From a phage: DNA of 64,000 nt. Location of the stretch: NCBI GenBank assembly GCA_017822615.1, contig GCA_017822615.1_4530.1. One strand, given 5' to 3'. Every line of letters begins with the position of its first letter. Positions within the stretch are counted from its first letter, which is position 1. Of the stretch, positions 4,690 through 32,203 are shown one piece after another. Under the pieces are notes generated by a model, which was given only the letters and a program-made list of their open reading frames with translations, did not search any database and had not been told where the DNA came from. Made by a program: the position numbers and the translations under genes.

Positions 4690-4698
4690 ATTCTCTCC

Positions 4699-6655: not shown

Positions 6656-6658
6656 GTA

Positions 6659-6686: not shown

Positions 6687-6716
6687 CAACTCATACAAAA
6701 CAAGAGGAGAAAACAA

Positions 6717-7151
6717 ATGCAAAACATCAAACTGACTTGGACCGAAGCTAAAGAAGCAATGAAGGAAGGTAGACGTGTTGAGCACAGTTATTTTTGCGGT
6801 GGTGAATGGTTTGAGATGCGAGATGGTGTTATTCTCGACGAACAAGGTTATAACATGGAAACTTGGTTCAGAGGGGAAGCTTGGCAGGAAGAGGGTTGGT
6901 CTGTAATTGAAAAAGAAGACAGTAAGGAAGAAGGCGTGTTGTCTAATGTAGAACGCAAGATGAGGGAAACAAAGATACCTGCTTTGGATTTTGTATACCT
7001 GGAAGAACTTGTGGCAGCATCTTTTGTAGCAGGAAATCTTTGGAATACACCTGTTAGCCGACTGGAGAACCAAAATAACCCATCTGCTCGTAATCACAAG
7101 CTTTATAAGGGTAAAGGTCACAACAAATTAAAGAAAGGAAAGAAGAAATGA
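6717..7151 (+). CDS. DUF2829-like protein (family that includes Thoeris anti-defence Tad2)
   Basis: 144 aa; N-terminal LTWTEAKEAMKEGRRVEH and later ETWFRGEAWQEEGWSV resemble the DUF2829 pattern by eye; Lys-rich tail. Confidence 0.4.
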   Translation: MQNIKLTWTEAKEAMKEGRRVEHSYFCGGEWFEMRDGVILDEQGYNMETWFRGEAWQEEGWSVIEKEDSKEEGVLSNVERKMRETKIPALDFVYLEELVAASFVAGNLWNTPVSRLENQNNPSARNHKLYKGKGHNKLKKGKKK

Positions 7152-15592: not shown

Positions 15593-15617
15593 AAAGGCGC
15601 ACTTTGCGCCTTTTTTG
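15593..15617 (+). terminator. rho-independent terminator
   Basis: AAAGGCGCA-ctt-TGCGCCTTT then TTTTTT. Confidence 0.6.
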
Positions 15618-18189: not shown

Positions 18190-18795
18190 ATGCAACATAG
18201 TGTAGTAGTCAACATGCCGAATAGTGGGGATAAATCTTTTGGTGTCCCTGCTAAAAAAGTGTGGAAAGCCCATTTTCATCTTACTTTATCTAACGTTAGT
18301 TCTGAAGAGTTGATGAAAGCAGCTAAGATCATTGGTGCCAAATGCACAACAATTGATTTACATCGGGATACAAAGTCTCAACGTGATCGTATGTTAACAA
18401 AGTATCAAAGCGATCTCGACACTACGTTAATGTTGCAATGTGTAGAAAAACTTGAGAACGCAGGTTTCAATGTTGTTCGTTACAAACTGGAACGAATGTT
18501 TAAACATGTTGCCTGTGTTCTTTTCATGGATCTAAGCAAAGAAAATTACGGAGAAGTTCACATTAAAACTTCAGCAAGTGATCCTGAAGTAGAAACAAAC
18601 TTCTTCCGTATTTCTTCTAATGCTGAAGAACTTGATTACCGATTTTACAATGCTCGCTTATATTCCGCAGAAGATAAGTTGCGTTTCAATGAAGCATATG
18701 ATATGCTCTTGAACAGTGGGATACAGATAAAAGGCTACCACATAGAACAAGTTGTGGTAGACAGTAACTTAAATCTTGATGCGTGGTGGGCCTAG
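18190..18795 (+). CDS. hypothetical protein
   Basis: 201 aa, GAGGAG RBS. Confidence 0.45.
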   Translation: MQHSVVVNMPNSGDKSFGVPAKKVWKAHFHLTLSNVSSEELMKAAKIIGAKCTTIDLHRDTKSQRDRMLTKYQSDLDTTLMLQCVEKLENAGFNVVRYKLERMFKHVACVLFMDLSKENYGEVHIKTSASDPEVETNFFRISSNAEELDYRFYNARLYSAEDKLRFNEAYDMLLNSGIQIKGYHIEQVVVDSNLNLDAWWA

Positions 18796-18796
18796 T

Positions 18797-19453
18797 ATGA
18801 CAATAAAACATATTTCTTTTGATGTATGGAATACTCTTATTTCTGCCAATCAAAACTATGCAGATGCACGTACGCACACTATTGCTACATATGGTAGAAT
18901 GTCTGAACGTGCGGCAAAAGAAGCATATAAAGATGCCAAAGAAATTATGGATAATGCTGCACTAAATGGGTGTGCAGAAGGTGTAGCATATGCATGGAAT
19001 ATGTTGGGAAGAAAGATAGGTTTAACCCCTGTAGAATCTGCACAAATGCGTTTTGAGTGTGAGCAATGGTTTCTTAAATTTCCTCCACATATCGCTTTAG
19101 ATTTGCCAGTTTGTTTGCTATACTTGTCTGGTAAATATGATCTTAGTATTAAAAGCAATACTAATTTTATATCTGGGAATATTTTGCGTCGTGCTTGTAT
19201 GTTCGACAGTTGGAATTGTTTTGAATTTATGCATTTTTCAGACGAACATCTGTTATGTAAACCAGATCCTAGATTCTTTGTTAGGACCGCCACATATTCA
19301 AGCATTCCTTTGAAGGCTGAAGAGATTTTACATGTTGGGGACAGCGAAGAATTTGATGGTAAATGTGTTGACATAGGGATTAACTTCTGTCATATTAAGA
19401 ACCCTAACGATTTACTAGAGAAACTTAAAAGAGGAGAAATTGTAAATGCGTAA
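18797..19453 (+). CDS. HAD-superfamily hydrolase (phosphatase/nucleotidase-like)
   Basis: N-terminal FDVWNTL (HAD motif I DxDxT-like) and C-terminal HVGDSEEFD (motif IV). Confidence 0.5.
   Translation: MTIKHISFDVWNTLISANQNYADARTHTIATYGRMSERAAKEAYKDAKEIMDNAALNGCAEGVAYAWNMLGRKIGLTPVESAQMRFECEQWFLKFPPHIALDLPVCLLYLSGKYDLSIKSNTNFISGNILRRACMFDSWNCFEFMHFSDEHLLCKPDPRFFVRTATYSSIPLKAEEILHVGDSEEFDGKCVDIGINFCHIKNPNDLLEKLKRGEIVNA
19368..19396 (+). promoter_or_regulatory. sigma70-like promoter inside 3' end of HAD gene
   Basis: TTGACA (19368-19373) N17 CATATT. Confidence 0.3.
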
Positions 19454-20273
19454 TCAAACTCAAATTTTTGCAAATAAATTTGATGACCTGGAAACTGCTA
19501 CTTTTGATATCAAAGACTATTCAAAATTGAAATTTGGTAGTAACCAAGCTGCGCGTCGTATGGGTAAAGAATTGGCACTTCAGTTTTTTGCTCAAGTGGC
19601 AATGAAACATATTGGGGAACAATTTGTTATCATCCCTTCTCCTTATAACCATGTGCACAATGCTGCAACAATGATGACAGATCATTTTATTAATTACTTT
19701 AATATGTTGCAAGCACAATATGATCAAGGTCGTTCAGCAGAACTGGATATTATTCATCGTAAAGTTAGCTATATCAACGATTATGGTTTCTTGGATAAAG
19801 CTAGTCGTAAGAAACTTATTGATGGGGATACATTCTACTGCAACAAAGAATTCTGGGGTGATAAGAAGCTTGTGTTCATTGATGATGTAAATATCACCGG
19901 AACTCATGAAGACAAACTGATTGAGATTCTTGATGAAAATCAAGTTAAAAATGATGTTTACTTCTTGTATTTTGCAAAATATGAAGGTAATCAAGCAGAT
20001 ACTGAAGCTAAACTGAATTTTAACTACATCAATACACCAGAAGCGTTTGTTAAAATGATTAATGAAGAACGTGATGCACAGTGTCTTGTTCGTCCTATTA
20101 AGTATCTTATGGGCCAAAATCACGAAGACTTCAAAATCATTCTTAGCCAATTGCCACACTACTATGTAGAGCAACTTTTCTTCGGATGTTTGGGAGAAGG
20201 TTACAACCGAATTTCAAAGTATGCTGAAAACTTTGAATTCTTGGATCGTTACACAAAACAACACATTCTGTAA
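19446..20273 (+). CDS. phosphoribosyltransferase (PRTase)-like protein
   Basis: KKLVFIDDVNITGTHED matches the type I PRTase PRPP-binding loop pattern. Confidence 0.5.
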   Translation: MRNQTQIFANKFDDLETATFDIKDYSKLKFGSNQAARRMGKELALQFFAQVAMKHIGEQFVIIPSPYNHVHNAATMMTDHFINYFNMLQAQYDQGRSAELDIIHRKVSYINDYGFLDKASRKKLIDGDTFYCNKEFWGDKKLVFIDDVNITGTHEDKLIEILDENQVKNDVYFLYFAKYEGNQADTEAKLNFNYINTPEAFVKMINEERDAQCLVRPIKYLMGQNHEDFKIILSQLPHYYVEQLFFGCLGEGYNRISKYAENFEFLDRYTKQHIL

Positions 20274-20286
20274 TAAGGAGCTAAAA

Positions 20287-20760
20287 ATGCTTAAAATGAA
20301 AACAGGTAATCTTATTGATGCCGCTAAAGCAGGTGAAGTAACTGTTATTGCTCATTGTTGCAATTGTATGTGTAATATGGGAGCAGGAATTGCTCCGCAA
20401 ATTAAACGAGCATTCCCTTATGCATATGCGGCAGATTTAGACACAATGGCTGGTGATCAAAGTAAGTTAGGTTCTTTTAGTTTAGGGGTGCCAGACGAAC
20501 AATCAGACCCTTTGGTATATAATCTATACGGGCAATACCGTTACGGATACAATGCTAAAGGTCGTCAGTTGGACTATGATGCACTTTACGATGCACTAAT
20601 AGCTATGGCTAATGATTTGCTTCTCCGTGACCAAAAATGTAAGATCGGTTTACCTATGATTGGAGCGGGACATGCCGGAGGTAATTGGGCTATCATCCAA
20701 GTGATGATTGAAGAAACTTTAGTAAAAACAGGTCACGATGTGACTATTTATAAACTTTAA
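20287..20760 (+). CDS. macro-domain protein (ADP-ribose binding/hydrolase)
   Basis: start moved to ATG 20287 after AAGGAG; VIAHCCNCMCNMGAGIAPQI and GLPMIGAGHAGGNW match macro-domain glycine-rich loops. Confidence 0.65.
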   Translation: MLKMKTGNLIDAAKAGEVTVIAHCCNCMCNMGAGIAPQIKRAFPYAYAADLDTMAGDQSKLGSFSLGVPDEQSDPLVYNLYGQYRYGYNAKGRQLDYDALYDALIAMANDLLLRDQKCKIGLPMIGAGHAGGNWAIIQVMIEETLVKTGHDVTIYKL

Positions 20761-20772
20761 GAGGAGATTAGT

Positions 20773-20994
20773 ATGGGTGTTTTTGCAGGTATTGTTGCAG
20801 TGGTAAGCTTTTTTGTTATTGCTTTTATGCTTAGTTTGATTCCAGCTTGGTTACTGTTGCTGGCTTACAACTATGTTGCTGAAGTTATGGGTCATGCAGA
20901 TATCACTGTCCCAGTAACCTTCTGGACCGTGGTTTGTGTTTCGTTTATTTTGGCGGTATTACGAGGAATCTTTTCCTCTCATTCAACAAAATAA
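20773..20994 (+). CDS. small membrane protein
   Basis: 73 aa, two hydrophobic helices. Confidence 0.45.
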   Translation: MGVFAGIVAVVSFFVIAFMLSLIPAWLLLLAYNYVAEVMGHADITVPVTFWTVVCVSFILAVLRGIFSSHSTK

Positions 20995-20997
20995 GTG

Positions 20998-21025
20998 TTG
21001 ACATAGTTCTTAAAAAGAGTAAGAT
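20998..21025 (+). promoter_or_regulatory. sigma70-like promoter upstream of terC
   Basis: TTGACA (20998-21003) N16 TAAGAT (21020-21025); leader contains GCGGGGA-atagt-TCCCCGC hairpin at 21038-21056. Confidence 0.5.
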
Positions 21026-21073
21026 ATATCACATGAAGCGGGGAATAGTTCCCCGCAAAGAGAGGAGAAAAGA

Positions 21074-22048
21074 ATGCAACTCGGTTTCCCAATTATTGAT
21101 GTAGTTGTTTTAGTTGGTATTTTAGCATTGTCTATTGGTATCGATTTCTTTGGTCATAAAGAGAATAAAGAAATTGGAATTAAATCTGCTTTGCTTTGGT
21201 CTGTTTTTTGGATTGCTTTAGCTTTAGGGTATTACGCATTCATTTGGGTAGAACATGGTAAAGAGTTTGCCGCGCTTTTCCTAAGTGGCTATGTGTTGGA
21301 AAAGAGTCTTTCTGTAGATAACCTAATGGTGTTCATGGCAATTTTTGCAAGCTTTGGAATTAAGAGCACACATCTCCAACATAAGATTCTACTTTGGGGG
21401 ATTGCAGGAGCCATTGTCTTCCGAGGTATTTTTGTTGCAGCAGGGACCGCTTTGTTTAACCTTCATTGGTCGGTCCAAGTGTTGTTCGGTTTGATTGTAG
21501 CTTGGTCTGCCGTGGCTATCATCAAAGGTGGTGACGAAGAAGAGGATATTGATTACTCTAAACATTGGGCTGTTCGTTTAGTAGGTAAAGTTATGCCTGT
21601 GCACAATGCACCGGATGGTGAAAAGTTCATCACCATTAAGAATGGTATTAAATATGCAACTCCTGCTCTTCTTTGTGTGTTTGTTATTGAGCTTACAGAT
21701 ATTGTCTTCTCTTTTGATTCAGTTCCGGCTGTGATCGGTGTGACACAAGAACCTCTGCTAGTTTATTCTGCAATGCTGATGGCTGTTCTTGGTTTACGTG
21801 CACTTTTCTTTGTGTTAAGTGTAGCTGTGAAATATCTGGTTCACTTAGAGAAAGCTGTTGCTGTGGTTCTGGTGTTTGTTGGTGCTAAACTTATGTATCA
21901 CCCGTTCGGTGAAACACTTCATGCCAAGTGGTCATTCCTCCCGCATGATATTTCCCCTAACGTAAGTCTGATGATTGTTCTAGGCACATTATCTCTTGGT
22001 GTTATTGCAAGCTTTATCTTCCCTGAAAAAGAAGAAGCTACTGTTTAA
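21074..22048 (+). CDS. terC: TerC-family integral membrane protein
   Basis: 324 aa polytopic membrane protein with the TerC signature EKSLSVDNLMVF. Confidence 0.8.
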   Translation: MQLGFPIIDVVVLVGILALSIGIDFFGHKENKEIGIKSALLWSVFWIALALGYYAFIWVEHGKEFAALFLSGYVLEKSLSVDNLMVFMAIFASFGIKSTHLQHKILLWGIAGAIVFRGIFVAAGTALFNLHWSVQVLFGLIVAWSAVAIIKGGDEEEDIDYSKHWAVRLVGKVMPVHNAPDGEKFITIKNGIKYATPALLCVFVIELTDIVFSFDSVPAVIGVTQEPLLVYSAMLMAVLGLRALFFVLSVAVKYLVHLEKAVAVVLVFVGAKLMYHPFGETLHAKWSFLPHDISPNVSLMIVLGTLSLGVIASFIFPEKEEATV

Positions 22049-22054
22049 TAAATG

Positions 22055-22080
22055 AGCCTCCTTCGGGAGGCTATTTTATA
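22055..22080 (+). terminator. rho-independent terminator
   Basis: AGCCTCC-ttcg-GGAGGCT then ATTTTAT. Confidence 0.6.
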
Positions 22081-22090
22081 GGAGAGACTT

Positions 22091-22441
22091 ATGAGTAATT
22101 TTGATGAAATTCAAGAACTTGTTTGGGATTTATCTGGTGATGTGGATTACGTTTTAGATTATCTTTCAAAAGTTTACCCTGGGGTAAGCGTTATGATCGT
22201 GACCAAAGATCCAATTAATTTGCCTCCTAATGTGGTAGCTTGTTGTGGGAGTGGTTCAGGGGAAGTGGAGCCTGTATCCCGTTGGGAATTAACTAAAGCT
22301 GTTTCAAAACGAAACGGTGAAGTTTTGAATATTGATATCGAGCAAATATGGACTTCTCCAGCAGCTAAATGGAATGATCCGAATGGTTGGGACTTGTTCT
22401 TCTGGGATAATGAAACTGATGATGAGGTATTTTTAAAATGA
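22091..22441 (+). CDS. hypothetical protein
   Basis: 116 aa. Confidence 0.45.
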   Translation: MSNFDEIQELVWDLSGDVDYVLDYLSKVYPGVSVMIVTKDPINLPPNVVACCGSGSGEVEPVSRWELTKAVSKRNGEVLNIDIEQIWTSPAAKWNDPNGWDLFFWDNETDDEVFLK

Positions 22442-22683
22442 AATACTTGTTGGTTGTGTTTGAAAATATTTGTTTTGCAATAGGGTTGTTTGTTGTAATT
22501 TTTGTATTGACAAGCGTAATCAACGGCAGTAAAGTGAGTTTATACCGAGATGGAGAGCAACTTTATTGCTTCTCTGGAGATTTCAAACACAGATGTATTA
22601 ATAGCCAAAACGAGGAAAGCAAATATGAAAAAACTAGCCCTGATTTTAATTGGTTGTATCTTTTTAACAGCTTGCGAGGATGA
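22438..22683 (+). CDS. possible small membrane protein (overlaps lipoprotein gene start)
   Basis: 81 aa, hydrophobic N-terminus; contains an internal promoter-like TTGACA-N17-TAAAGT at 22507-22535. Confidence 0.3.
   Translation: MKYLLVVFENICFAIGLFVVIFVLTSVINGSKVSLYRDGEQLYCFSGDFKHRCINSQNEESKYEKTSPDFNWLYLFNSLRG
22507..22535 (+). promoter_or_regulatory. sigma70-like promoter upstream of lipoprotein gene
   Basis: TTGACA N17 TAAAGT. Confidence 0.35.
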
Positions 22684-23062
22684 AACAAATCCTGCACAAT
22701 ACCAACAACCTCCTCAACAATACGCTCAACAAGGATCTGACGGAGATACAACTATTATCAACAATGGTGGCGGTTCTAGTAGTAGCGGTGTTGGTGAGTT
22801 TGCTACAGGTATGTTGTTAGGGCATATGATGAGTGGCGGTAGTAATCGTAGCAGTGGGGATTATAACGATAACAGAACGATTATTAATAAGCATTATAAT
22901 ACACCTAAACCGAAAACTAATTTTTATAGTAAGCCTAAACAAGAGATAAAAACTTATGAAAAGCCGAGACAAACTTTTAAAACAAATAGTAGCTATACAA
23001 CTCGTAAATCTTACAATAGCCCTTTAAGTAAAAAGAGTTCATCTCGTAGCAAGCGACGTTAA
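22625..23062 (+). CDS. lipoprotein (Q/S/N-rich)
   Basis: start moved to ATG 22625; MKKLALILIGCIFLTAC lipobox; low-complexity C-terminus. Confidence 0.55.
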   Translation: MKKLALILIGCIFLTACEDETNPAQYQQPPQQYAQQGSDGDTTIINNGGGSSSSGVGEFATGMLLGHMMSGGSNRSSGDYNDNRTIINKHYNTPKPKTNFYSKPKQEIKTYEKPRQTFKTNSSYTTRKSYNSPLSKKSSSRSKRR

Positions 23063-23076
23063 TAAGGAGAAAAACA

Positions 23077-23670
23077 ATGACAATTTCTATTCGTACTTCC
23101 ATCGTAGGTGTTAAAAGGTTGCCTAATGCTTTGCAAATCACACGCGCTTTGAGGGATACATTCTCTGCTGTGGACGAGCATAAGATGCTTGATAATCTTT
23201 CAAATTGGCCCTATTTCCATTATTTTAAAAATGAAGATGACGAGTTTATAGACGCTGTTTCTTATGGTTATGATTTCGGTAAGGAGGTTTCTGCTGAAGA
23301 ATTTGTAGCTATGGTGTTCCCAAACGGTTTGCCTACTCGCAGTAAACGTAAAAAAGGACCAAAAAACAAGAAACGTGCTACTAATAAAGCTACCATTTTC
23401 TTTACTGATGGCACACAATATACGATTAAAGATTTTGAAGAGGTATCTTATACAGCAGGTGGGAATCTTTCTTTCTACACCATCAAAAAACAAAACTCTA
23501 CGTTCAGCCATGTTTCTAACATGATTGAAATGTTAGTAGAAGATATTGAAAGCGTAGCTGTGTTAGGTATGCATAAAAGCTTTTTAATTACAAATATTTC
23601 AGATTTCAGTGCACGTTTATCTGGTCCTGATTTTGAAACCACGACCACGCATTTCACTTTTAAGGTGTAA
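23077..23670 (+). CDS. hypothetical protein
   Basis: 197 aa, basic patch SKRKKGPKNKKR. Confidence 0.45.
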   Translation: MTISIRTSIVGVKRLPNALQITRALRDTFSAVDEHKMLDNLSNWPYFHYFKNEDDEFIDAVSYGYDFGKEVSAEEFVAMVFPNGLPTRSKRKKGPKNKKRATNKATIFFTDGTQYTIKDFEEVSYTAGGNLSFYTIKKQNSTFSHVSNMIEMLVEDIESVAVLGMHKSFLITNISDFSARLSGPDFETTTTHFTFKV

Positions 23671-23673
23671 GTT

Positions 23674-24264
23674 ATGTATACCGAGAGAGACTTGCAACTC
23701 TTGTGGTGGGAAGTGATGCAGGAAATAAAAGAAGATTTTCCTGTTTACTACAACATGTTACGTGAAGCAGGATATAAAGCTTGTGTTAGAAACAAAGTGA
23801 ATAACTCTTTCGGTTGGTGCAACTACCGAGATAAAATTGTTGTTGTAAATTGGCACTTGCATAAGAACTCTACAAGAGATATGATCGTGGATACAATGAA
23901 GCACGAAATTGCTCATGCTATTGATGGTTGTATGGGTAAGTTTAGTAGACACGGTGCTCATTGGCAAAAACTGGCAGCAGAGTTAGGGGCTAATCCTAAA
24001 GCCACTTCCAAAGAGCCGTTGAACCACGAATATAAATATGTTCTTGTTCTGGTAGATAGGTTTGCGACAAGATGTGTTAGAGGTTATAATCGTAAACCTA
24101 ATCGCATGTACCCAGGTAAGCAACCTAATATGTGGTTGAAATCAGATAAAGAAGGGACCGAAGGAAAATTATGGTTGTATAAATGGGACGATTGGGTTAA
24201 AGTAGCTAAAGAGTACGGTGTTTCACCATATATAAGAGATGCAGAAGAGGAGAATGAAGAATGA
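23674..24264 (+). CDS. SprT-like zinc metallopeptidase
   Basis: HExxH motif in MKHEIAHAIDGC plus downstream His/Cys. Confidence 0.5.
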   Translation: MYTERDLQLLWWEVMQEIKEDFPVYYNMLREAGYKACVRNKVNNSFGWCNYRDKIVVVNWHLHKNSTRDMIVDTMKHEIAHAIDGCMGKFSRHGAHWQKLAAELGANPKATSKEPLNHEYKYVLVLVDRFATRCVRGYNRKPNRMYPGKQPNMWLKSDKEGTEGKLWLYKWDDWVKVAKEYGVSPYIRDAEEENEE

Positions 24265-25373
24265 CAAGTCCATTTTTAAAAGCAGCTACTGGCGGTCAGA
24301 AGAAGCCTGAAATGAGCGTATTTGCTGCAACAACAGATGCAAGTAAATCTGTATTCGCTCCAAGCGTGTTAGATGCCAGTCCTGTTTATGCACCAGCGGC
24401 ACCGCAAGAAGTTCCAGTTTTGCCTTCTATGACCCGACAAGAGATCGAAGAGATTGGGGCAGAGGCAGGAACAACCTTGCGTTCCTTGAATGCCGAGGTA
24501 TTAAAACATCAACGTAGTAATCAAGGCGATCAGATGAGTGAACGACTCACAGCTTTGATTAAACAGGCAAAACAACTTGATCCAAACTCTATTAAACAAA
24601 GCAAGGGTATTACTAAACTCATTAAAAAAGTTATGGGTATGAAAGAAGATCTGTTTGGGGAGTTTGATAATGTTAATAACCGTATTGAAGAGTTGGTAAA
24701 AAACCTTCAAATGGATATTCGCAAAGAAGAAGATTCCTTGGTATATCTTGAAAAGCTACATCAAGCTATTGGACAATATGCTGCAAGTTTGAACCGAGAT
24801 ATGCAGCTTCTAACAGCAACCTATGAAAAAGAAGAACAAGCTTTGGCTGCTCTTCCAGAAGATGCAGTAGAACAGCGACAAGTGATCCGAGATACTTTGG
24901 ATCTTCTGGAGATTCGTATTGCAGATTTAAAAGCATTGCGCCTACTGTGTGTCCAAATGGGACCGCGTGTACAAGGTATGCAAAAAGTTTCTGCAAGCTT
25001 AATGCGATCTGCGCGTAACATAGTAAATAATGTTATTCCTGCTTACTCTGCTAACTTCTCAATGTATATCGAGAGCTTACGTCAAATGAAAGCAGCAGAG
25101 ACGCAGAATAACGTTCTTGATGAATTTAACCTGGCAATTAAACTGGGTAGCGATCTTGCCACACAGAATCAGATCGAAGCAGCAGCACTGGCTAACCGTC
25201 AAGTGTTGGATATTGAAACTCTGCGTCACGATCAGGAAAACTTGGTTAAGATGTTGGAAGAAACTAACCGCATCAATACGGAAGCCCGTGCTGCTCGTGT
25301 TGATTATATTAATGAAGTTCAATCTTTGGAAGACGGGATGGTAGCTGCTGTGAAACGAGGGCTTGGTAAATGA
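24261..25373 (+). CDS. TelA-like (toxic anion resistance family) coiled-coil protein
   Basis: 370 aa largely helical; size, composition and ter-locus context suggest TelA; assignment by recollection only. Confidence 0.4.
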   Translation: MTSPFLKAATGGQKKPEMSVFAATTDASKSVFAPSVLDASPVYAPAAPQEVPVLPSMTRQEIEEIGAEAGTTLRSLNAEVLKHQRSNQGDQMSERLTALIKQAKQLDPNSIKQSKGITKLIKKVMGMKEDLFGEFDNVNNRIEELVKNLQMDIRKEEDSLVYLEKLHQAIGQYAASLNRDMQLLTATYEKEEQALAALPEDAVEQRQVIRDTLDLLEIRIADLKALRLLCVQMGPRVQGMQKVSASLMRSARNIVNNVIPAYSANFSMYIESLRQMKAAETQNNVLDEFNLAIKLGSDLATQNQIEAAALANRQVLDIETLRHDQENLVKMLEETNRINTEARAARVDYINEVQSLEDGMVAAVKRGLGK

Positions 25374-25570
25374 GAATCCGTATCTATATAATTGATGAGG
25401 ACATTGGTGTCCGTTATGATGACGAAAAACGATTCGCGCCGATGGGAGGCATATATCCCCCAAGTGTTCTAGCAGTTTGTCGTGATTGTTATATTTATGA
25501 AGGTTGTCGTAACTTCCGTAAATTCGAACTCCTTGCAGATATTGACTTCAATGAGGAGGAGGAGGAGTAA
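25370..25570 (+). CDS. hypothetical protein
   Basis: 66 aa, acidic C-terminus. Confidence 0.4.
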   Translation: MRIRIYIIDEDIGVRYDDEKRFAPMGGIYPPSVLAVCRDCYIYEGCRNFRKFELLADIDFNEEEEE

Positions 25571-25743
25571 TGAAAATATTACGAGTGAATATTGAAACTG
25601 CTTGGTGTGGATGCAATGAGGTTGTGGATATCGAAATTGAAGATGATATGTCTCAAGAGGATATAGAAGATCTTGCACACGAAACCTTTCAGGACTATTG
25701 TAATTACGGGTTCCATATTTTAGAGGAGGAAGAGGATGTTTAA
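25570..25743 (+). CDS. small hypothetical protein (57 aa)
   Basis: not in track; TAATG junction upstream and ATG overlap downstream. Confidence 0.35.
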   Translation: MKILRVNIETAWCGCNEVVDIEIEDDMSQEDIEDLAHETFQDYCNYGFHILEEEEDV

Positions 25744-25939
25744 CTACGATAACGACCCTAATATTATCCAGTTAACCCGACAAGAACTGATCACAATCAT
25801 TGAAGATGCTTTTATTGATGGCTGGAATACACAAGACAATGATTGGGGTGGACCCGAAGCTTTTCTGGAACATCATAAAGCTTATGGAGAATTTTGTGAA
25901 ACCACTGTAGCTCTTGATAATCTGAAGGAGGGTTTGTAA
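25736..25939 (+). CDS. hypothetical protein
   Basis: 67 aa. Confidence 0.4.
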   Translation: MFNYDNDPNIIQLTRQELITIIEDAFIDGWNTQDNDWGGPEAFLEHHKAYGEFCETTVALDNLKEGL

Positions 25940-26502
25940 TGGGTTGTTTTAGCTTTTTGTGCAAAGAATCGGGCAAAGCTGCCCTTTCTACTTCTTTCGA
26001 CGGATCACCTTGTTATCTCTTTCTTTTGAAGGACGGTGTTGTTATTGAAGAGATGTATGGCAACTATGATAGTTATGGTTGTGTTTTCTCTGGAAAGGAG
26101 GATGAAAATGGCGTTCGTGAACGGTTCGAATGGGCTATGGATTGGGGTAAGGTTTGTGATTTAATGCATTCCTCGAATCCAAGGGATGGTATCGCTATGG
26201 TGCTGGAAGAGTATTTTACAGGTGAAATCCCTACAGAACAATCTGACGGAGATCCTAACCAAGGTTGGGGTGATGGCGAAGAAGATCCAGATTGTTTTTT
26301 CAGCACAGAAAAGAATAAGTTTAAACGTGTTGACAACCCTTATCACAAAGTGCATAATACTCTCATTGAAACAGAAGATGACAAGATGGAAATTGAAGAA
26401 GATGATCCTCTTGTAACACTTCCTATAAGTGAGTTACAAAAGATCACTAAGGAAGCTTACGATTTGGGCTTCAAAATTGGTAGAGGAGGTATGCGTGTTT
26501 AG
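25939..26502 (+). CDS. acidic hypothetical protein
   Basis: 187 aa. Confidence 0.45.
   Translation: MGCFSFLCKESGKAALSTSFDGSPCYLFLLKDGVVIEEMYGNYDSYGCVFSGKEDENGVRERFEWAMDWGKVCDLMHSSNPRDGIAMVLEEYFTGEIPTEQSDGDPNQGWGDGEEDPDCFFSTEKNKFKRVDNPYHKVHNTLIETEDDKMEIEEDDPLVTLPISELQKITKEAYDLGFKIGRGGMRV
26330..26358 (+). promoter_or_regulatory. sigma70-like promoter (internal to preceding gene)
   Basis: TTGACA (26330-26335) N17 CATAAT (26353-26358). Confidence 0.4.
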
Positions 26503-26773
26503 ATTCAATATTCAAGAAGAAAAAAGTCAGGATTTACCTATTGCTTTCGAAGATCTTGACGTAGGGGCCACATTCATGTATTATGATGCCTATGAAGACG
26601 CAGGGTTGGATACCTACCGTAACTTGGTGTTCATTAAAAATTCCACAAACAGTGCGATTTGTATTAATGGATCACTAGCACAACGAGGCTATACTCATTG
26701 CATCCCACCAGATACAAATATGGTGGAAGTAGATTTAGAAGTTACCAATATTACACTTAAGAAGGAGAAATAA
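26495..26773 (+). CDS. small protein, paralog A of a duplicated family
   Basis: GTG start after GAGGAGG; shares FxIxEEK...DLDVGxTFxY...GLD...EVxLxVTxITLK with 27795..28064. Confidence 0.45.
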   Translation: MFRFNIQEEKSQDLPIAFEDLDVGATFMYYDAYEDAGLDTYRNLVFIKNSTNSAICINGSLAQRGYTHCIPPDTNMVEVDLEVTNITLKKEK

Positions 26774-26774
26774 T

Positions 26775-27569
26775 ATGTCCGAGAAAATCAGCCTGAAAAA
26801 ACGTCAAGAAAACCTTGCTTTCTCTCTGAAAAAGAATAAGAACCTGAATGAAGGTAAGATTGTTCTTCGTGTAGCATGTGCTCTAGATATTTCTGGTAGT
26901 ATGCATGGTCTATATTCTAGTGGGGTAGTGAGTGATTTTGTAGGTAAACTGCTTCCTTTTGGTATGCTGTTCGACGATAATCAACAAATTGATATGTGGG
27001 CCTTCAATACGAGTTCCCAAGAGCTTACTCCAGCAACAGCAGACGTTTACGATGACTATGTTGGTAAATGTATGCGTAATGTTCGTATCGGAGGTGGAAC
27101 AAATTACGCCCCTGTAATGGCAGATATCTACGATGAGTATTTTGGCACTGTTACCAAATATATTACCACTAAACAAGTGGTACAAGAGGAGGCTCCAAAG
27201 AAAGGCTTCTTTAATCGTCTGCTTGGTAAAACTGAAACAGTATCTGTAGAGCGTGAAAAGGTTGTAGCTGTGTCTGAACCAGGTGCTGACGTTACCCCTG
27301 GTGTTGTATTCTTCCAGACGGATGGTGAGAATGGTGATCCTAGTGCTGTTCGTCGTCTTATTGAAGAGAATAAGAATAAACCTATTTATTGGTTCATGGT
27401 TGGCGTTGGTAATGAGAAGTTTGGCTTCCTGAAAGAACTGGCAAATGCTTATGATAATGTTGGTTTTATTGGCATTAAAGATTTAGACTTGACAGATTCA
27501 GAGCTTTATGACAAACTCTTATCTGAAGAGTTCGGAGAGTGGGTTGTTAAAGTAGGTGCTAAAAAATGA
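26775..27569 (+). CDS. vWA-domain protein (TerY-like)
   Basis: MIDAS motif DISGSM with downstream GGTNYAP; N-terminus KISLKK...FSLKK resembles TerD N-terminus. Confidence 0.6.
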   Translation: MSEKISLKKRQENLAFSLKKNKNLNEGKIVLRVACALDISGSMHGLYSSGVVSDFVGKLLPFGMLFDDNQQIDMWAFNTSSQELTPATADVYDDYVGKCMRNVRIGGGTNYAPVMADIYDEYFGTVTKYITTKQVVQEEAPKKGFFNRLLGKTETVSVEREKVVAVSEPGADVTPGVVFFQTDGENGDPSAVRRLIEENKNKPIYWFMVGVGNEKFGFLKELANAYDNVGFIGIKDLDLTDSELYDKLLSEEFGEWVVKVGAKK

Positions 27570-27814
27570 TCGACGAGCTTGCCTCTCAAGTCATAGAAAA
27601 TTATTGGCGCGAGAGAGAAGCTTTCATTATGCGCAGTCTCAAAGAGTATTTCATTGGGACTGTGCGAATGGAAGATATTGTAAGTAGAGTAGAGATTCAT
27701 GTATGGCCTGATTATGAAGAATGGGTTGACAAAGAAAATGAAAATGCTATAATTCTTCGTATATACAAACCGGAGATAACATTAGGAGGAAGAAGTGTTA
27801 AACTTCGAAATTGA
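27566..27814 (+). CDS. hypothetical protein
   Basis: 82 aa, ATGA overlap. Confidence 0.4.
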   Translation: MIDELASQVIENYWREREAFIMRSLKEYFIGTVRMEDIVSRVEIHVWPDYEEWVDKENENAIILRIYKPEITLGGRSVKLRN

Positions 27815-28064
27815 TGAGCAAAAAGTAAATAAACGATGCCTTACCATTAAAGATTTGGATGTAGGAGATACTTTCGTCTATGAAAATGCATTTGACGAAA
27901 ATGGTTTAGACCTTAGTGAAATCATTGTTTATTTAAAAGTAGATGATGGGGAAAATGATTATTCTGCTGTAGAACTAAACCATCATGCACAATTAGTATC
28001 AATCCAAAACACATCTAAGCTTTTGGAAGTAGAATTGACTGTAACTGGTATTACACTTAAATAA
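27795..28064 (+). CDS. small protein, paralog B of a duplicated family
   Basis: GTG start after AGGAGG; see paralog A. Confidence 0.45.
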   Translation: MLNFEIDEQKVNKRCLTIKDLDVGDTFVYENAFDENGLDLSEIIVYLKVDDGENDYSAVELNHHAQLVSIQNTSKLLEVELTVTGITLK

Positions 28065-28079
28065 TAGAGGAGACAAAAG

Positions 28080-28682
28080 ATGACTGATAAAATTTCCCTG
28101 AAAAAAGGTTCTAGCGAAAAAATTTCCCTGAAGAAAGTTGCTCCGGCTCTGAAAGAACTGCGTCTGGAATTCTCTTGGAAATCTGATTCTAAACTGGATC
28201 TGGATGTAAGTGCACTGGTTTGTCGTCACAATGCCGCTGGCAATCCTGAAATGCTGTCTGCACGTCATCTGGTTTGCTATGCTAACAAGTTTGATCCTGA
28301 ACGTTCTACCTTCGCTGGTGACGATGTTCGTGATGGAACTGGCAGCATGGAGCAGATTGATATTACTCTGGCTAAAATCTCTCCTGATGCACAAGAGATT
28401 GCCTTTGTTCTGACCATTGAGGATGATACAGGTCTGAAACGTTTTGGTCATGCTTCTGAAGGTATGCTTAAAATCTTCGACTCCGAGCGCAATGTGGAAA
28501 TTCTGGATTTTGACTTCCTGGCTCCTGAAGTAGCTGGCAACACAATCTGCCACGTGGCTTCCCTGGTTCGTGAAGATGGAGAATGGAAGCTGAAAGCATA
28601 TGGTGTAGGTAAAGCTGGTCTGGATATTTGCGATGTGGTGATGGCCTTCGGTGGTAAAAAAGAATGGTATGAATGTCCATAA
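28080..28682 (+). CDS. terD: TerD-family protein
   Basis: 200 aa aligns end to end with canonical TerD: N-terminal ISLKKG..ISLKK, LDLDVSALV, GDDVRDGTG, DGEWKLKAYGVGKAGL. Confidence 0.85.
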   Translation: MTDKISLKKGSSEKISLKKVAPALKELRLEFSWKSDSKLDLDVSALVCRHNAAGNPEMLSARHLVCYANKFDPERSTFAGDDVRDGTGSMEQIDITLAKISPDAQEIAFVLTIEDDTGLKRFGHASEGMLKIFDSERNVEILDFDFLAPEVAGNTICHVASLVREDGEWKLKAYGVGKAGLDICDVVMAFGGKKEWYECP

Positions 28683-28781: not shown

Positions 28782-29588
28782 TTGCTGATAAAAAACTTTG
28801 TAACAGTTGCGTTACTATCCTTAACTGCTTTTACATTTACACCTGTTGTGGCGAAAGCCGAAGCTGCAAACGTAAAAACCGCTAAAGTAGTTCACAAATG
28901 TACAAAGCAATATAATGATAAAATTCTATTAGCTTGTGCAATTTACGCAGAAGGTCGCGGTCTGGGTAAAAAAGGAATGAATGCCGTTGGGAATGTGGTA
29001 ATCAACAGAAGAAATGATGCCTACTTCCCTAACACAGTCAAGGGAGTCTTGTTCCAGAAAGGGCAATTCTCATATGCGAAAACTTTTAACGTGACAGAGA
29101 AAGATAAGTGGCAGGAAGCAAAAGCAATAGCGGAGCGTTTACTTTATTTAGAGAAACATTTTCCTGAATTGCGGTCTGTTTTAGATGTTACTAAAGGTGC
29201 TCTATACTTCAAGAAACGGAATATAAGGACACACTGGGAGCGTGATATGCGTCTTGTTTATCGAGATAAAGTGCATGGTTTCTATCTACCAAAGGGAGTT
29301 AAAATGCAAGAAGATAATACTGTTGTTGTAGCAAGTTACCTGGTTGTCGGTCTTACCGAAGAGGACGTATACTACACCCGTAAACATTTGGAAGCATACG
29401 CTACTTTGTTTATGGAAGATGAAAAGGATGTAGATAAATATAGCATTGATATGATCAACGACAGTATTTATCCTTGTATGGTTCTTAAAGTAGATGCTGT
29501 GCTGTGGGAGCGTTTTGCAAGGACTCATGATGCTGTAGAATGCTCCGCAGTAATGTCTCAAAACAACATTTTAGGGGAGATTCACTGA
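28782..29588 (+). CDS. cell-wall hydrolase (SleB/CwlJ-like) with N-terminal signal/SAR segment
   Basis: TTG start after AAGGAGG; hydrophobic N-terminus then LLACAIYAEGRG...VGNVVINRR...QKGQFSY matching the SleB-type hydrolase core. Confidence 0.5.
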   Translation: MLIKNFVTVALLSLTAFTFTPVVAKAEAANVKTAKVVHKCTKQYNDKILLACAIYAEGRGLGKKGMNAVGNVVINRRNDAYFPNTVKGVLFQKGQFSYAKTFNVTEKDKWQEAKAIAERLLYLEKHFPELRSVLDVTKGALYFKKRNIRTHWERDMRLVYRDKVHGFYLPKGVKMQEDNTVVVASYLVVGLTEEDVYYTRKHLEAYATLFMEDEKDVDKYSIDMINDSIYPCMVLKVDAVLWERFARTHDAVECSAVMSQNNILGEIH

Positions 29589-30575: not shown

Positions 30576-31259
30576 ATGGAAAATATTAAAATCGGAGTGG
30601 GTGTTATCACTGTAGGTGTCCGTCCACTTAAAGACTATCTTGTAACAGATCCACATGCAGATTTTCGAGTATTCAACGATCCAGATCGTAAAGGTGTAGC
30701 TTACGCCAGGAATGAACTTATGCACCAGTTTTATGAAGAAGGTTATGATTATTGGTTTATTTTTGACGACGATTGCTACCCAATCATGGAGGGATGGGAA
30801 ACATATTTTGTAGATCAAGCTGTCTCTGGAGGATGGGATTTCTTTGGTATGCCGGAGTATTTCAAAGATAAAGTTGTTGGGAGTAAAGGAGAAGTTATTC
30901 TCTGGGAACTTGCAATGTGTCAATTTGCAATGTATTCTCGTGCCGTTGTTGAGAAGATGGGTTATTTCCGCCCTTACACTCACGGCTATGGTTTTGAAGA
31001 TGCTGAATGGGTACACCGTTTGAAAGCTGCTGGTTTGAATCAGGGCATTCAGGCAATACCTTGTCCACTTCGTATCATGGCTTATATCCACCCAGACGAT
31101 GTTTTTGGAAACAATCCTATGCCTTTTGCTAATCTGACAAAAGAAGAGAAAGAAGCTGCTATTGGCATTAACTGGGAAGAATATAAAGCGTCTTTAGAAG
31201 ATATTAAAAATGGGAAAATCCGAATTTCTTATGAGGAGGCACTGGCACATGTCAAATAA
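30576..31259 (+). CDS. glycosyltransferase, GT-A (family 2-like)
   Basis: GVAYARN and FIFDDDCYP (DxD) motifs. Confidence 0.5.
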   Translation: MENIKIGVGVITVGVRPLKDYLVTDPHADFRVFNDPDRKGVAYARNELMHQFYEEGYDYWFIFDDDCYPIMEGWETYFVDQAVSGGWDFFGMPEYFKDKVVGSKGEVILWELAMCQFAMYSRAVVEKMGYFRPYTHGYGFEDAEWVHRLKAAGLNQGIQAIPCPLRIMAYIHPDDVFGNNPMPFANLTKEEKEAAIGINWEEYKASLEDIKNGKIRISYEEALAHVK

Positions 31260-32196: not shown

Positions 32197-32203
32197 GTGA
32201 AGT

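Follow-up and report, generated by a model that had tools for sequence, protein, structure and literature searches.

A stand-alone macrodomain protein of a phAPEC8-like Escherichia coli phage as a putative AdfM-type ADP-ribosylglycohydrolase

The macrodomain gene found in the window, by which we mean the whole 64,000-nucleotide stretch of phage DNA analysed here, probably encodes a stand-alone ADP-ribosylglycohydrolase, that is, an AdfM-type orphan “antitoxin” that would act on phage DNA modified by DarT2. The gene, the fold of its product, its family membership, and the conservation of its active site are established in the present study. From the homology with T4 Tk.4/AdfM, for which the evidence is genetic, and with SCO6735, for which it is biochemical, we infer that the substrate would be thymidine-linked ADP-ribose (ADPr) on single-stranded DNA and that the protein would counteract DarTG2. 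With its function read in this way from relatives, the product appears to be an ordinary member of a known phage anti-defence family. The first-pass annotation, which had been made from the DNA letters and had raised a possible link of the gene to its Ter neighbours, overlooked this more specific and better supported reading, in which a Tk.4/AdfM homologue is accompanied by an AdfN counterpart.

The gene and its predicted fold

The ORF that starts with the ATG at 20287 and ends with the last stop-codon base at 20760 is a real gene with its own ribosome-binding site (Table 1). Phage DE16, which is 98.5% identical, has the same 474-nt CDS, labelled in GenBank as “macro domain-containing protein”. 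A longer version starting at 20221 was considered and rejected: it would overlap the phosphoribosyltransferase (PRTase) gene, neither a ribosome-binding site nor a homologue N-terminus favours it, and the N-termini of the homologues, MLK or MIKY..G, argue against it. The source phage is a Phapecoctavirus, a phAPEC8-like E. coli phage. The family is common in large phages and the gene is already annotated as a macrodomain, while the names given to it in GenBank vary between “macro domain-containing protein” and “phosphatase”.

Table 1. Positions in the window of the macrodomain gene, its motifs, and the neighbouring or related features.
Feature	Position	Strand	Basis or remark
NADAR-domain gene, 180 aa	378..920	-	PF08719, E 3.4e-35
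HAD-family hydrolase	18797..19453	+	weak PF00702, NCBIfam HAD-IA; phrog_14393; start from the DE16 GenBank CDS
ComF-like phosphoribosyltransferase (PRTase_3), directly upstream of the macrodomain gene	19446..20273	+	PF15610, E 6.1e-42
Shine-Dalgarno sequence AAGGAG	20276..20281	+	5 nt upstream of ATG 20287; read from sequence
Macrodomain gene	20287..20760	+	157 aa + stop; ORF call, Pfam, PHROG, PDB, AlphaFold2
First active-site loop H23-C-C-N26-C-M-C-N-M-G-A-G-I-A-P-Q-I39	20353..20403	+	alignments
N79-L-Y-G-Q83 motif, then long basic “mobile loop” (R85, K91, R93)	20521..20568	+	alignments
Phosphate-binding loop I125-G-A-G-H-A-G-G-N-W134	20659..20688	+	alignments
73-aa hydrophobic membrane ORF in the macrodomain-TerC gap	20773..20994	+	phrog_16065, E 6e-43
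TerC-family membrane protein	21074..22048	+	PF03741, E 1.2e-40
Terminator-like hairpin directly after TerC	22055..22072	+	consensus scan; pattern match only

The identification as a macrodomain, as judged from sequence comparison and the predicted model, goes well beyond chance. The Pfam Macro profile (PF01661) is matched over positions 2–112 of 118; the score of 23.0 bits (E 7.9e-5) exceeds the cut-off of 22 by a small margin, which is backed by matches to PDB proteins reaching 1e-12 with the single sequence and 2e-22 with the family profile. PHROG 335 is matched with an E value of 1e-55. In phmmer searches against the PDB, the protein hit SCO6735 (1.1e-12), BT1257 (1.7e-8), DarG (9e-7), and TARG1 (3.5e-6), and a family profile built from 42 sequences hit BT1257 (2e-22), SCO6735 (2.7e-20), and TARG1 (2e-18), and more weakly DarG (3e-11) and Poa1p (2.6e-10). 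Macrodomains are characterized by a three-layer alpha/beta/alpha architecture with a central mixed sheet and by an ADP-ribose cleft formed from two Gly-rich loops. The AlphaFold2 model (pLDDT 93.2, pTM 0.90), which comprises six strands and five helices, has this architecture. Its top Foldseek matches in the PDB, namely TARG1 (4.5e-12), BT1257, TaqDarG, Poa1p, and SCO6735, are all macrodomains, as are those in BFVD, and the TM scores reach 0.87 and 0.93 in the respective databases. The first-pass annotation had proposed a macrodomain on the basis of two Gly-rich stretches, NMGAGIAPQI and IGAGHAGGNW. Both are present, as residues 30–39 (nt 20374–20403) and 125–134 (nt 20659–20688), they represent the two loops with which macrodomains bind substrate and phosphate, and the proposal is borne out by Pfam, the PDB, the family profile, and AlphaFold2/Foldseek. 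A different fold, the outcome it had named as counterevidence, did not emerge from any profile or fold search; all of them led to macrodomains. The protein belongs by sequence to the ALC1/TARG1-like class and, within it, to the SCO6735/BT1257 “Gln” subclass. Relationships in the family were ranked by graded HMM scores, as sequences of 150 aa with 20–50% identity would give a poorly resolved tree.

Active-site residues and related macrodomains

The alignments place H23 and N26 of the phage protein at H24 and N27 of SCO6735, and G126 and G128 at the SCO6735 residues of the same numbers, while Q83 stands where TARG1 has its catalytic Lys84, DarG its Lys80, and SCO6735 its Gln85. H23, N26, G34, and A36 in the first loop and N79, Y81, and Q83 in the second motif are invariant in 42 homologues. 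A census of loci by HMM and phmmer, which covered the 80 closest viral macrodomain relatives (44 clusters at 70% identity) and the 80 closest bacterial ones, found the NxY[GST]Q motif in 77 members of each set. Proteins of the Gln subclass have a positively charged mobile loop about five residues longer than that of TARG1 or DarG. In the phage protein, the stretch QYRYGYNAKGRQ aligns without gaps with SCO6735 and BT1257, and a 6-residue gap opens in TARG1, DarG, and the PhiKZ protein, the positive charge being supplied by R85, K91, and R93; both the replacement of Lys by Gln together with a loop-1 Asn (Q83 and N26) and the extended basic loop that mark the subclass are, accordingly, found here.

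For SCO6735, cleavage of ADPr from DNA thymidines and protection of E. coli against DarT have been demonstrated; its Q85A mutant is inactive, its N27S mutant is nearly so (PMC9411070), and its K34 is important for DNA binding. Besides the equal-length mobile loop, SCO6735 and BT1257 share with the phage protein the His-x-x-Asn, Asn-x-x-Gly-Gln, and GxGLAGGxW motifs, and all three are encoded by orphan genes without an adjacent DarT. However, their identity to the phage protein is only 26–27%, their loop 1 reads GGWGKG and includes the DNA-binding Lys34 where the phage protein has MGAGIA, and they are cellular proteins (of Streptomyces coelicolor and Bacteroides thetaiotaomicron, respectively) rather than viral ones. 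According to the alignment, Val25 and Lys34 of SCO6735 are replaced by Cys24 and Ala33. Cys24 may be able to substitute for Val25, whose role in holding the catalytic water is mediated by the backbone, while the loss of the Lys34 equivalent could lower the affinity for DNA.

The invariance of the catalytic residues in the 42 homologues speaks for catalytic activity and against a role limited to binding. It is true that macrodomains can be pure readers and that the ThsA macrodomain binds His-ADPR, from which one might suppose that the phage protein is a non-catalytic “sponge” for an ADPr-containing immune signal. Such a role is the least credible of the alternatives considered here, because the catalytic residues of SCO6735 (the Asn, the Gln, and the Gly-Gly loop) are not only invariant in those homologues but also nearly so in 154 of 160 further relatives, and because the homologue Tk.4 counters an enzyme toxin and not a signalling system. 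As to phage counterparts of ThsA, a preprint on Migulavirinae and Thoeris II mentions only the host ThsA macrodomain and no phage one, and so has no bearing on the present protein.

The top structural match is human TARG1/OARD1 (E 4.5e-12, TM 0.78–0.87), which has the same MGAGIA sequence in loop 1 and also removes thymidine-ADPr from DNA. This likeness, together with the facts that SCO6735 also hydrolyses protein ADPr and that U-ADPr on RNA is reversed by SCO6735 and TARG1 alike, raises the possibility of a de-ADP-ribosylase for proteins (Glu/Asp-linked) or RNA (uracil-ADPr or phosphate-linked), which would erase marks left by host ART toxins or phage transferases. We regard it as rather unlikely that this is the main function. 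The Lys84/Asp125 dyad with which TARG1 cleaves Glu-ADPr is absent, Gln83 and Ala130 standing in its place, and the mobile loop of TARG1 is shorter; assignment of the phage protein to TARG1/OARD1 was rejected owing to the missing dyad. In addition, a gene for an ART did not turn up among those ORFs of the window that were scanned, no bacterial defence is known that involves macrodomain-reversible ADP-ribosylation of RNA bases, and the adenine-ADPr made by CmdT is described as irreversible. All the same, the phage macrodomain may have further substrates besides DNA, and DNA may not be the principal one, considering that SCO6735 and TARG1 act on protein-Glu-ADPr and RNA uracil-ADPr as well.

Searches of the PADLOC defence library and of NCBIfam gave a single match for the protein, to the macrodomain part of DarG: the PADLOC DarG model is hit with 1.6e-10 over positions 1–144 of 329, and the NCBIfam model NF048014, whose cut-off is 250 bits, with 36 bits over positions 2–147 of 338. 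DarG from T. aquaticus and M. tuberculosis, as well as gp104 of phage PhiKZ, has the same macrodomain fold and likewise belongs to the ALC1/TARG1-like class, and the reaction of DarG, the removal of ADPr from thymidine in single-stranded DNA, is the same as that proposed here for the phage protein. Unlike DarG, though, the phage protein lacks the catalytic Lys of the FPTK motif as well as a C-terminal DarT-binding domain, and its gene has no DarT neighbour. DarG proper was rejected as an assignment on the grounds that the score falls below the cut-off, that the protein ends after the macrodomain, that K80 of TaqDarG is replaced by Gln83, and that a DarT neighbour is lacking. PhiKZ gp104 is a true DarG-type protein with the catalytic Lys (9e-25 to MtbDarG) and is distant from the present family, scoring 24.5 bits against its HMM.

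Kinship with T4 Tk.4 and the proposed role against DarTG2

The closest characterized relative is Tk.4 of T4-type phages, with 37% identity over 124 aa by BLASTP (E 7e-21). Tk.4 scores 111.6 bits (1.9e-33) against the family HMM, above every PDB protein, and PHROG 335 is the best match for both Tk.4 and the macrodomain studied here. When HIDEN-SEQ was applied on a DarTG2 host, tk.4 was the only gene to emerge, and its clean deletion, in experiments done at 30 °C, sensitised T4 to DarTG2, on which genetic evidence, published as a preprint, it was named adfM (bioRxiv 10.1101/2025.11.20.689424). PhiKZ gp104, an independent phage macrodomain that is also called AdfM, strips DNA in vitro of the ADP-ribose added by DarT2 and relieves the toxicity of DarT2 (PMC13309987). 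Protection from DarTG2 or neutralisation of DarT2 is documented for these two proteins only, T4 Tk.4 (bioRxiv 10.1101/2025.11.20.689424) and PhiKZ gp104 (PMC13309987); the published DarTG2 assays depend on slowed growth, for which another study uses sub-MIC chloramphenicol (PMC11825919). AdfB of ICP1, a non-enzymatic DarT binder, has no bearing on the present macrodomain.

Tk.4 and the phage protein are both stand-alone macrodomains of about 155 aa from lytic E. coli myoviruses, have in common NLY[GT]Q, whose Gln takes the catalytic position, AH.CNC, and IGAG..GNW, and are encoded in genomes that also carry a NADAR (AdfN). On the other hand, the identity is 32–37%, the mobile loop of Tk.4 is six residues shorter and without basic residues, MKAGVA and GIGKG are found in Tk.4 where MGAGIA and GHAGG are found here, and the tk-vs region that holds tk.4 contrasts with the Ter cluster around the present gene. 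The specificity could differ from that of Tk.4 in view of this identity and the shorter, non-basic loop.

In the proposed reaction, a DarT2-type toxin would ADP-ribosylate thymidines in single-stranded phage DNA, and the macrodomain would bind the ADP-ribose between its two Gly-rich loops. The bond between the ribose and N3 of thymine would be cut by a lysine-independent mechanism of the SCO6735 type, in which Gln83, held by Asn26, would position the distal ribose and water would be the catalyst. Free ADP-ribose would be released and the DNA would become replicable again. Together with the NADAR protein, which would be AdfN-type and specific for guanine-ADPr, the phage might be covered against both DarTG2 and DarTG1.

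The first-pass annotation was right that the NADAR gene, which lies on the minus strand, constitutes a second and independent ADP-ribose-processing module unrelated to the macrodomain. Its product is 57% identical to bas60_0111 of phage Bas60 (BLASTP 9e-68), and the genes are syntenic. We take bas60_0111 to be AdfN(Bas60), as the part of Bas60 that was read has no other annotated NADAR-type gene and the gene order matches. The Bas60 orthologue of the macrodomain gene is bas60_0070. AdfN(Bas60) neutralises DarT1, not DarT2 (PMC11825919). Among other phages, 16 loci hold both a NADAR gene and a macrodomain gene of this family, and in 14 of them the two are immediate neighbours.

A DarT2 neighbour was found in none of the 80 closest bacterial relatives, in none of the 80 viral loci, and nowhere in the window, when searched by phmmer with the single DarT2 of P. 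aeruginosa 505, a query that distant DarTs could escape. The lack of DarT2 beside the bacterial relatives, which counts against the AdfM reading, leaves descent of the family from a DarTG operon unsupported within the limited sensitivity of this single-sequence query.

Iyer et al. favour soluble ADPr derivatives as the main targets of phage macrodomains (PMC9503650). The enzyme might, for instance, hydrolyse ADP-ribose-1''-phosphate, O-acetyl-ADP-ribose, the cyclic ADPR isomers of TIR/Thoeris systems, or His-ADPR, and thereby detoxify or silence NAD-derived immune signals. Many homologues are automatically named “O-acetyl-ADP-ribose deacetylase”, and Poa1p, an ADPr-1''-phosphatase that is the source of the “phosphatase” label, is among both the sequence and fold matches and shares the loop-1 His. 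One large group of relatives, moreover, has the gene in an NAD/ADPr island of the order NUDIX-NAMPT-NADAR-Macro-HAD_SAK_2-SIR2-Prs. Hydrolysis of soluble derivatives nevertheless seems unlikely to be the principal activity, even if it is the alternative to which we give most credit. The database names are automatic transfers and not tests, and Poa1p matches the family profile far more weakly than BT1257, SCO6735, and TARG1 do (2.6e-10 versus 2e-22 for BT1257). The invariant Gln83 and Asn26 and the long basic loop match SCO6735, which is active on nucleic acids, and Tk.4, the closest characterized phage relative, has a DarTG2 phenotype. The NAD island, although it accounts for 28 of 80 loci in the raw count, shrinks to 1–6 of the 44 clusters after de-duplication, and the window has no homologue of its NAMPT, Prs, SIR2, or NUDIX. 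A link to NAD reconstitution (NARP) was also considered and rejected, given that the NARP3 paper deals with PnuC and NadR, which are unrelated, and that the NAD island has no counterpart in the window.

The Ter neighbourhood

The macrodomain gene is physically inside a near-complete phage Ter cluster. The first-pass annotation had put it between the PRTase and TerC genes, and this order holds on the plus strand, except that an additional 73-aa transmembrane ORF precedes TerC; the same ORF is present in five of six Ter-bearing viral loci. Two hairpins picked up by the consensus scan, at 15593–15613 and 22055–22072, bracket the genes nrdD-nrdG-...-HAD-PRTase-macro-TerC. This stretch likely forms one transcription unit, and the macrodomain gene is probably co-transcribed with those for HAD, PRTase, and TerC.

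The annotation had further raised the idea that a ribosylated product of the Ter module could be the substrate of the macrodomain. In a developed form, the macrodomain would have been recruited into the Ter system of Stephanstirmvirinae phages, and the HAD-PRTase-macro-(TM)-TerC block would make and turn over an ADP-ribose-related or nucleoside-like signal. The genes are indeed tightly spaced, with an 8-nt overlap between HAD and PRTase, 13 nt between PRTase and macrodomain, and 12 nt between macrodomain and the transmembrane ORF, and no strong terminator lies between nrdD and TerC. The HAD-PRTase-macro-TerC order is kept in both Phapecoctavirus and Justusliebigvirus, though their macrodomain proteins are only 49% identical, and it recurs in five of six Ter-bearing metagenomic relatives. 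If such recruitment were true, the long-hypothesised “Ter metabolite” would for the first time become accessible through an enzyme.

The wider comparison, which took in the contexts in phiTE, PHB05, Bas60, XaC1, Rhizobium and Brevundimonas phages, and three metagenomic relatives as well as the census, makes this recruitment very improbable. In the Xanthomonas (XaC1), Rhizobium, and Brevundimonas phages, HAD and PRTase_3 form a stand-alone pair, and no macrodomain gene lies closer to it than 6 kb. Conversely, PRTase_3 occurs within 10 kb of only five of the 80 closest viral macrodomain relatives (three of 44 clusters) and of none of the 80 bacterial ones, and the phiTE macrodomain gene, whose product has 51% identity, has no PRTase or TerC nearby. 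Even where Ter genes are present, the macrodomain gene can lie away from HAD and PRTase (locus L016), and in another case an extra gene sits between PRTase and macrodomain (L010). The published components of phage Ter systems, namely PRTase, HAD, TerB/TerD, TerC, TelA, and vWA-TerF, do not include a macrodomain (PMC7824862), and, by the established chemistry of type I PRTases, a PRTase together with a phosphatase would yield a nucleoside and not an ADP-ribose conjugate. Membership in the Ter system as defined by Anantharaman 2012 and Iyer 2021 was rejected as well, because the macrodomain is not a listed component and the linkage is not kept across lineages. The linkage is confined to one lineage, Stephanstirmvirinae, and most family members are found in other contexts; with HAD-PRTase pairs occurring without a macrodomain, the proposal of a Ter-derived substrate was rejected as the main explanation. 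We read the place of the gene in the nrdD...TerC unit as lineage-specific gene order and not as functional coupling.

The practical gain from the present analysis is modest, as the family is known and the macrodomain annotation already exists, but misleading public labels are corrected, by which the macrodomain is called “phosphatase”, NADAR “GTP cyclohydrolase II”, and PRTase_3 “orotate phosphoribosyltransferase”. If the proposed action on DarT2-modified DNA is true, the protein would represent a third sequence type of AdfM, Gln-type with a long basic loop and nearest to bacterial orphan macrodomains, next to the Gln-type with a short loop (T4 Tk.4) and the Lys-type resembling DarG (PhiKZ gp104). 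The phAPEC8-like therapeutic E. coli phages would then hold two DNA de-ADP-ribosylases that match each other, with the macrodomain directed at thymidine-ADPr (DarTG2) and NADAR at guanosine-ADPr (DarTG1), and this pair would help to explain and predict the host range of these phages on clinical strains bearing DarTG.

The macrodomain gene and the fold of its product

Homologue N-termini in our alignment, all of the form M-[LI]-K-x-x-x-G, coincide with position 20287 of the window. The start at ATG 20221 given by a mechanical ORF list was rejected because it falls within the PRTase coding sequence upstream and because the homologues begin at the 20287 position; GenBank annotates the same CDS in a phage of 98.5% identity. 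Escherichia phage vB_EcoM_ESCO25 matches the region at 99.9% identity, and each of the 25 listed phAPEC8-type records (Phapecoctavirus, Stephanstirmvirinae), among 128 with a match, does so at 94.5% or more. In phAPEC8-type records, the gene is labeled "hypothetical protein", "putative phosphatase" or "macro domain-containing protein". Near-identical genomes are annotated inconsistently, with NADAR as "GTP cyclohydrolase II", the macrodomain as "phosphatase" and, in public records, PRTase_3 as "orotate phosphoribosyltransferase" or even, in FKP3, as "Zot-like toxin", and several E. coli-type phage records were deposited under Campylobacter, Acinetobacter or Pseudomonas phage names.

The 157-aa product (the macro protein) barely exceeds the Pfam Macro threshold (23 bits vs a gathering score of 22, E 7.9e-5) and matches PHROG 335, named "phosphatase" (1e-55), which is the best match for both this protein and T4-type Tk.4. 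A phmmer search of the PDB retrieved macrodomains only, the best being SCO6735 (1.1e-12) and BT1257 (1.7e-8), followed more weakly by T. aquaticus DarG (TaqDarG; 9e-7), human TARG1 (3.5e-6) and yeast Poa1p (2e-3). The family profile, an alignment of 42 homologues, matched BT1257 (2e-22), SCO6735 (2.7e-20), TARG1 (2e-18), DarG (3e-11) and Poa1p (2.6e-10). The AlphaFold2 model built from that alignment is confident (pLDDT 93.2, pTM 0.90), and its best Foldseek matches in the PDB are TARG1 (4.5e-12), BT1257, TaqDarG, Poa1p and SCO6735, while those in a viral structure library are phage macrodomain proteins, T4-type Tk.4 among them. Because the Pfam, PDB profile and Foldseek matches are macrodomains and no profile search assigned another fold, the macrodomain proposed in the first-pass annotation stands, and both motifs quoted there are present, NMGAGIAPQI as residues 30-39 and IGAGHAGGNW as residues 125-134. 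By tblastn, 2930 phage records contain the family, T4 tk.4 being one member, and it is among the most widespread in large phages; a Macro domain is encoded by 41% of myoviruses (PMC9503650).

The length of the proteins varies. Those of two Justusliebigvirus loci (L004 4734-5450; L175 4833-5567) have 238-244 aa, with an N-terminal extension of ~85 aa that is absent from the macro protein; several phage macro proteins in BFVD have 218-260 aa, and ~222-aa forms are common in metagenomes. A separate 184-aa ORF takes the position of the extension, between the PRTase and macro genes, in a metagenomic relative (L010 4457-5011). The annotated start of phiTE_035 (phiTE locus L003, 5088-5516) falls within the macrodomain, leaving out the AH.CNC strand and loop, and is probably too far downstream because the frame open from 4926 spans the entire domain.

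Active site and probable reaction

A MAFFT alignment with characterised macrodomains, together with HMMER alignments, aligns the invariant Gln83 (motif N79-L-Y-G-Q83) with the catalytic lysines, Lys84 in TARG1 and Lys80 in DarG, and Ala130 with TARG1 Asp125. Gln is common to this position in SCO6735 (Gln85), BT1257 and T4-type Tk.4 (NLYTQ), and the Gln-type subclass has been defined by Hlousek-Kasun et al. (PMC9411070). In that study, SCO6735, despite lacking the Lys/Asp residues, efficiently cleaved thymidine-linked ADP-ribose from DNA and rescued E. coli from DarT; Q85A was inactive, N27S was nearly inactive because Gln85 is held in position by Asn27, and Gly128 was important. Its mobile loop, which exceeds that of TARG1/DarG by five residues, provided basic residues that aid DNA binding (PMC9411070). 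The macro protein has His23, Asn26, Gln83, Gly126 and Gly128 at equivalent positions and a mobile loop of equal length with Arg85, Lys91 and Arg93. It differs from SCO6735 in loop 1, which is MGAGIA, identical to TARG1, rather than GGWGKG and therefore lacks Lys34, and in having Cys24 in place of Val25; its phosphate loop has His129 instead of the usual Leu. H23, N26, G34, A36, N79, Y81, Q83, G126, G132 and W134 are invariant in the 42 homologues, and, among 80 viral and 80 bacterial relatives, NxY[GST]Q occurs in 77 of each set. Such conservation is that of an enzyme, and a non-catalytic binder is hardly to be expected.

The closest characterised relative is T4-type Tk.4 (phage AR1; 37% identity over 124 residues, E 7e-21), which scores 111.6 bits with the family HMM, followed by BT1257 (82.8 bits), SCO6735 (75.7 bits), TARG1 (68.7 bits), TaqDarG (43.8 bits), MtbDarG (36.6 bits) and PhiKZ gp104 (24.5 bits); bacterial orphan macrodomains, at 39-47% identity, are closer to the phapecoctavirus protein than Tk.4 is. 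In the HIDEN-SEQ preprint, tk.4 alone among the T4 genes was depleted on a host with DarTG2, its clean deletion made T4 DarTG2-sensitive, and the gene was named adfM (10.1101/2025.11.20.689424). The PhiKZ gp104 macrodomain, likewise named AdfM, strips DarT2-made ADP-ribose off DNA and neutralises DarT2 (Morgan et al., PMC13309987), but with its FPTK motif and its match to MtbDarG (9e-25) it belongs to the DarG type proper, and the macro protein is only distantly related to it. DarG was the sole match in defence-system libraries, with its macrodomain part only (PADLOC 1.6e-10, positions 1-144 of 329), and the score with the NCBIfam DarG equivalog, 36 bits, was below its cut-off of 250. The macro protein was rejected as a DarG because it lacks the catalytic Lys and the DarT-binding domain at the C-terminus and because a phmmer search with one DarT2 sequence found no DarT gene beside its own; judging from its sequence, it seems to be an orphan member of the enzyme class that includes the DarG macrodomain.

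Whereas the gene, its fold, its subclass and the conservation of its residues are shown here, as to substrate and biological role we infer that the macro protein probably reverses DarT2 DNA ADP-ribosylation by an SCO6735-type mechanism, giving escape from DarTG2. Acting as an ADP-ribosylglycohydrolase on single-stranded phage DNA, it would grip ADP-ribose with loop 1 (30-39) on one side and the phosphate loop (125-134) on the other, clamp the DNA with its basic mobile loop and cleave the C1''-N3(thymine) bond by a Lys-independent route, in which Gln83, itself fixed by Asn26, would position the distal ribose and a water molecule would act. The DarT2 modification would thereby be reversed. SCO6735 and TARG1 also process Glu-ADPr and U-ADPr, and removal of ADP-ribose from protein or RNA is a quite unlikely reading for the macro protein; action on soluble ADPr derivatives is also unlikely.

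The Ter cluster and other neighbourhoods

A near-complete phage Ter system occupies 18190-28682 on one strand (+) of the window. The phage Ter components were listed by Iyer et al., who proposed superinfection exclusion, with no macrodomain in the list (PMC7824862). Terminator-like hairpins (pattern match; 15593-15613 and 22055-22072) flank the stretch from nrdD to TerC, so the macro gene probably shares a transcript with nrdDG, HAD, PRTase and TerC. The 201-aa protein, without a match in Pfam or NCBIfam, accompanies HAD-PRTase in four of the six viral loci that have Ter genes, and the module may thus include it as a third component. The HAD-PRTase-macro-TerC order recurs in metagenomic relatives and in Justusliebigvirus (PHB05 and Bas60, in which the macro gene is already annotated "putative macrodomain protein"). 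Three successive glycosyltransferase-like ORFs (30576-33147, +) may have to do with modifying DNA or the surface; the first weakly matches TET-associated glycosyltransferase (PF20691, E 1.3e-3).

Features of the window and of loci from other phages
Feature	Sequence	Position	Strand	Remark
NADAR	window	378-920	-	PF08719, 3.4e-35
CapR-domain protein	window	1469-2929	-	five CapR-homology repeats, 486 aa; precedes NADAR gene
AAA/FtsH-like ATPase	window	3018-4157	-	precedes CapR protein and NADAR
Conserved 201-aa protein	window	18190-18795	+	phrog_22504; directly upstream of HAD-PRTase
HAD	window	18797-19453	+	
PRTase_3	window	19446-20273	+	
AAGGAG	window	20276-20281	+	5 nt upstream of macro ATG
Macro gene	window	20287-20760	+	474 nt; ATG 20287, stop codon end 20760
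TM ORF	window	20773-20994	+	73 aa
TerC	window	21074-22048	+	
SprT-like metalloprotease	window	23674-24264	+	
TelA	window	24261-25373	+	
vWA-TerF	window	26775-27569	+	
TerD	window	28080-28682	+	
SleB-type cell-wall hydrolase	window	28782-29588	+	after TerD
HAD-PRTase_3 pair	L005 (XaC1)	5333-6816		without TerC or macrodomain
HAD-PRTase_3 pair	L006 (RHph_TM21B)	4308-5613		without TerC or macrodomain
HAD-PRTase_3 pair	L007 (Gurke)	5342-6846		without TerC or macrodomain
NAD/ADPr island	L012	366-10029		~80-kb phage contigs; also L013, L022, L023, L030 and others

The suggestion that the macro protein acts on a ribosylated metabolite made by the Ter module is not supported, since the macro-Ter linkage stops short of phiTE, two other relatives (L016/L008) and the bacterial loci, and a Ter-linked role seems very improbable. 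In phiTE (Certrevirus; macro 51% identity), neither PRTase nor TerC is near the macro gene; L016 and L008 have Ter genes, with macro among small unknown ORFs and HAD ~10 kb distant; and PRTase_3 is present in none of the 80 closest bacterial macro loci. Among the 80 closest viral macro loci, five have PRTase_3 within 10 kb (3 of 44 clusters at 70% identity) and six have Ter components (4 of 44). HAD-PRTase_3 is a portable two-gene cassette of unrelated phages, being present alone in Xanthomonas phage XaC1, Rhizobium phage RHph_TM21B and Brevundimonas phage Gurke, where an HMM search found no macro family member within 6 kb. It adjoins an NMN adenylyltransferase/Nudix gene in the Rhizobium phage and lies near RNA ligase, CCA-adding enzyme and Nudix genes in XaC1.

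The macrodomain is a mobile stand-alone gene of many auxiliary-gene neighbourhoods. An NAD/ADPr island (NUDIX-NAMPT-NADAR-Macro-HAD_SAK_2-SIR2-Prs) accounts for 28 of the 80 loci but at most 6 of the 44 clusters, and was rejected as the commonest macro context, most such loci being near-duplicates; counterparts of its NUDIX, NAMPT, SIR2 and Prs genes were not found in the window. In the ~80-kb contigs, the island also has a Glu_synthase-like gene between NUDIX and NAMPT, its last gene is Prs-like, and NADAR ends 2-3 nt ahead of the macro start. Its NAMPT and Prs-like gene presumably resemble the NARP1 NAD-reconstitution pair.

The NADAR partner

The NADAR protein, named beforehand as a second ADP-ribose module, is indeed encoded in the window, and the PADLOC candidate-defence model PDC-M42C also matches it (3.6e-35). 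It shares 57% identity (9e-68) with bas60_0111 of phage PaulScherrer/Bas60, a Justusliebigvirus, the sister genus of Phapecoctavirus, and the order AAA/FtsH-like, CapR-domain protein, NADAR is common to window 378-4157 and bas60_0109-0111. AdfN(Bas60), reported without a locus tag, neutralises DarT1 and lets DarTG1-sensitive phages plate again, but not on DarTG2 (PMC11825919); we infer that it is bas60_0111 because this is the sole NADAR-type gene annotated in the Bas60 stretch examined. In other phages, NADAR and macro are directly adjacent in 14 of 16 loci holding both within 10 kb. Since the NADAR protein is like AdfN and the macro protein like AdfM, the phage would have the AdfN and AdfM pairing of T4. 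Macrodomain identity is already in public annotation and papers on T4 and PhiKZ describe the anti-DarTG2 role of AdfM; within the macro family, the phapecoctavirus protein is a fairly divergent member whose active site is of the Gln type and whose basic loop is long.
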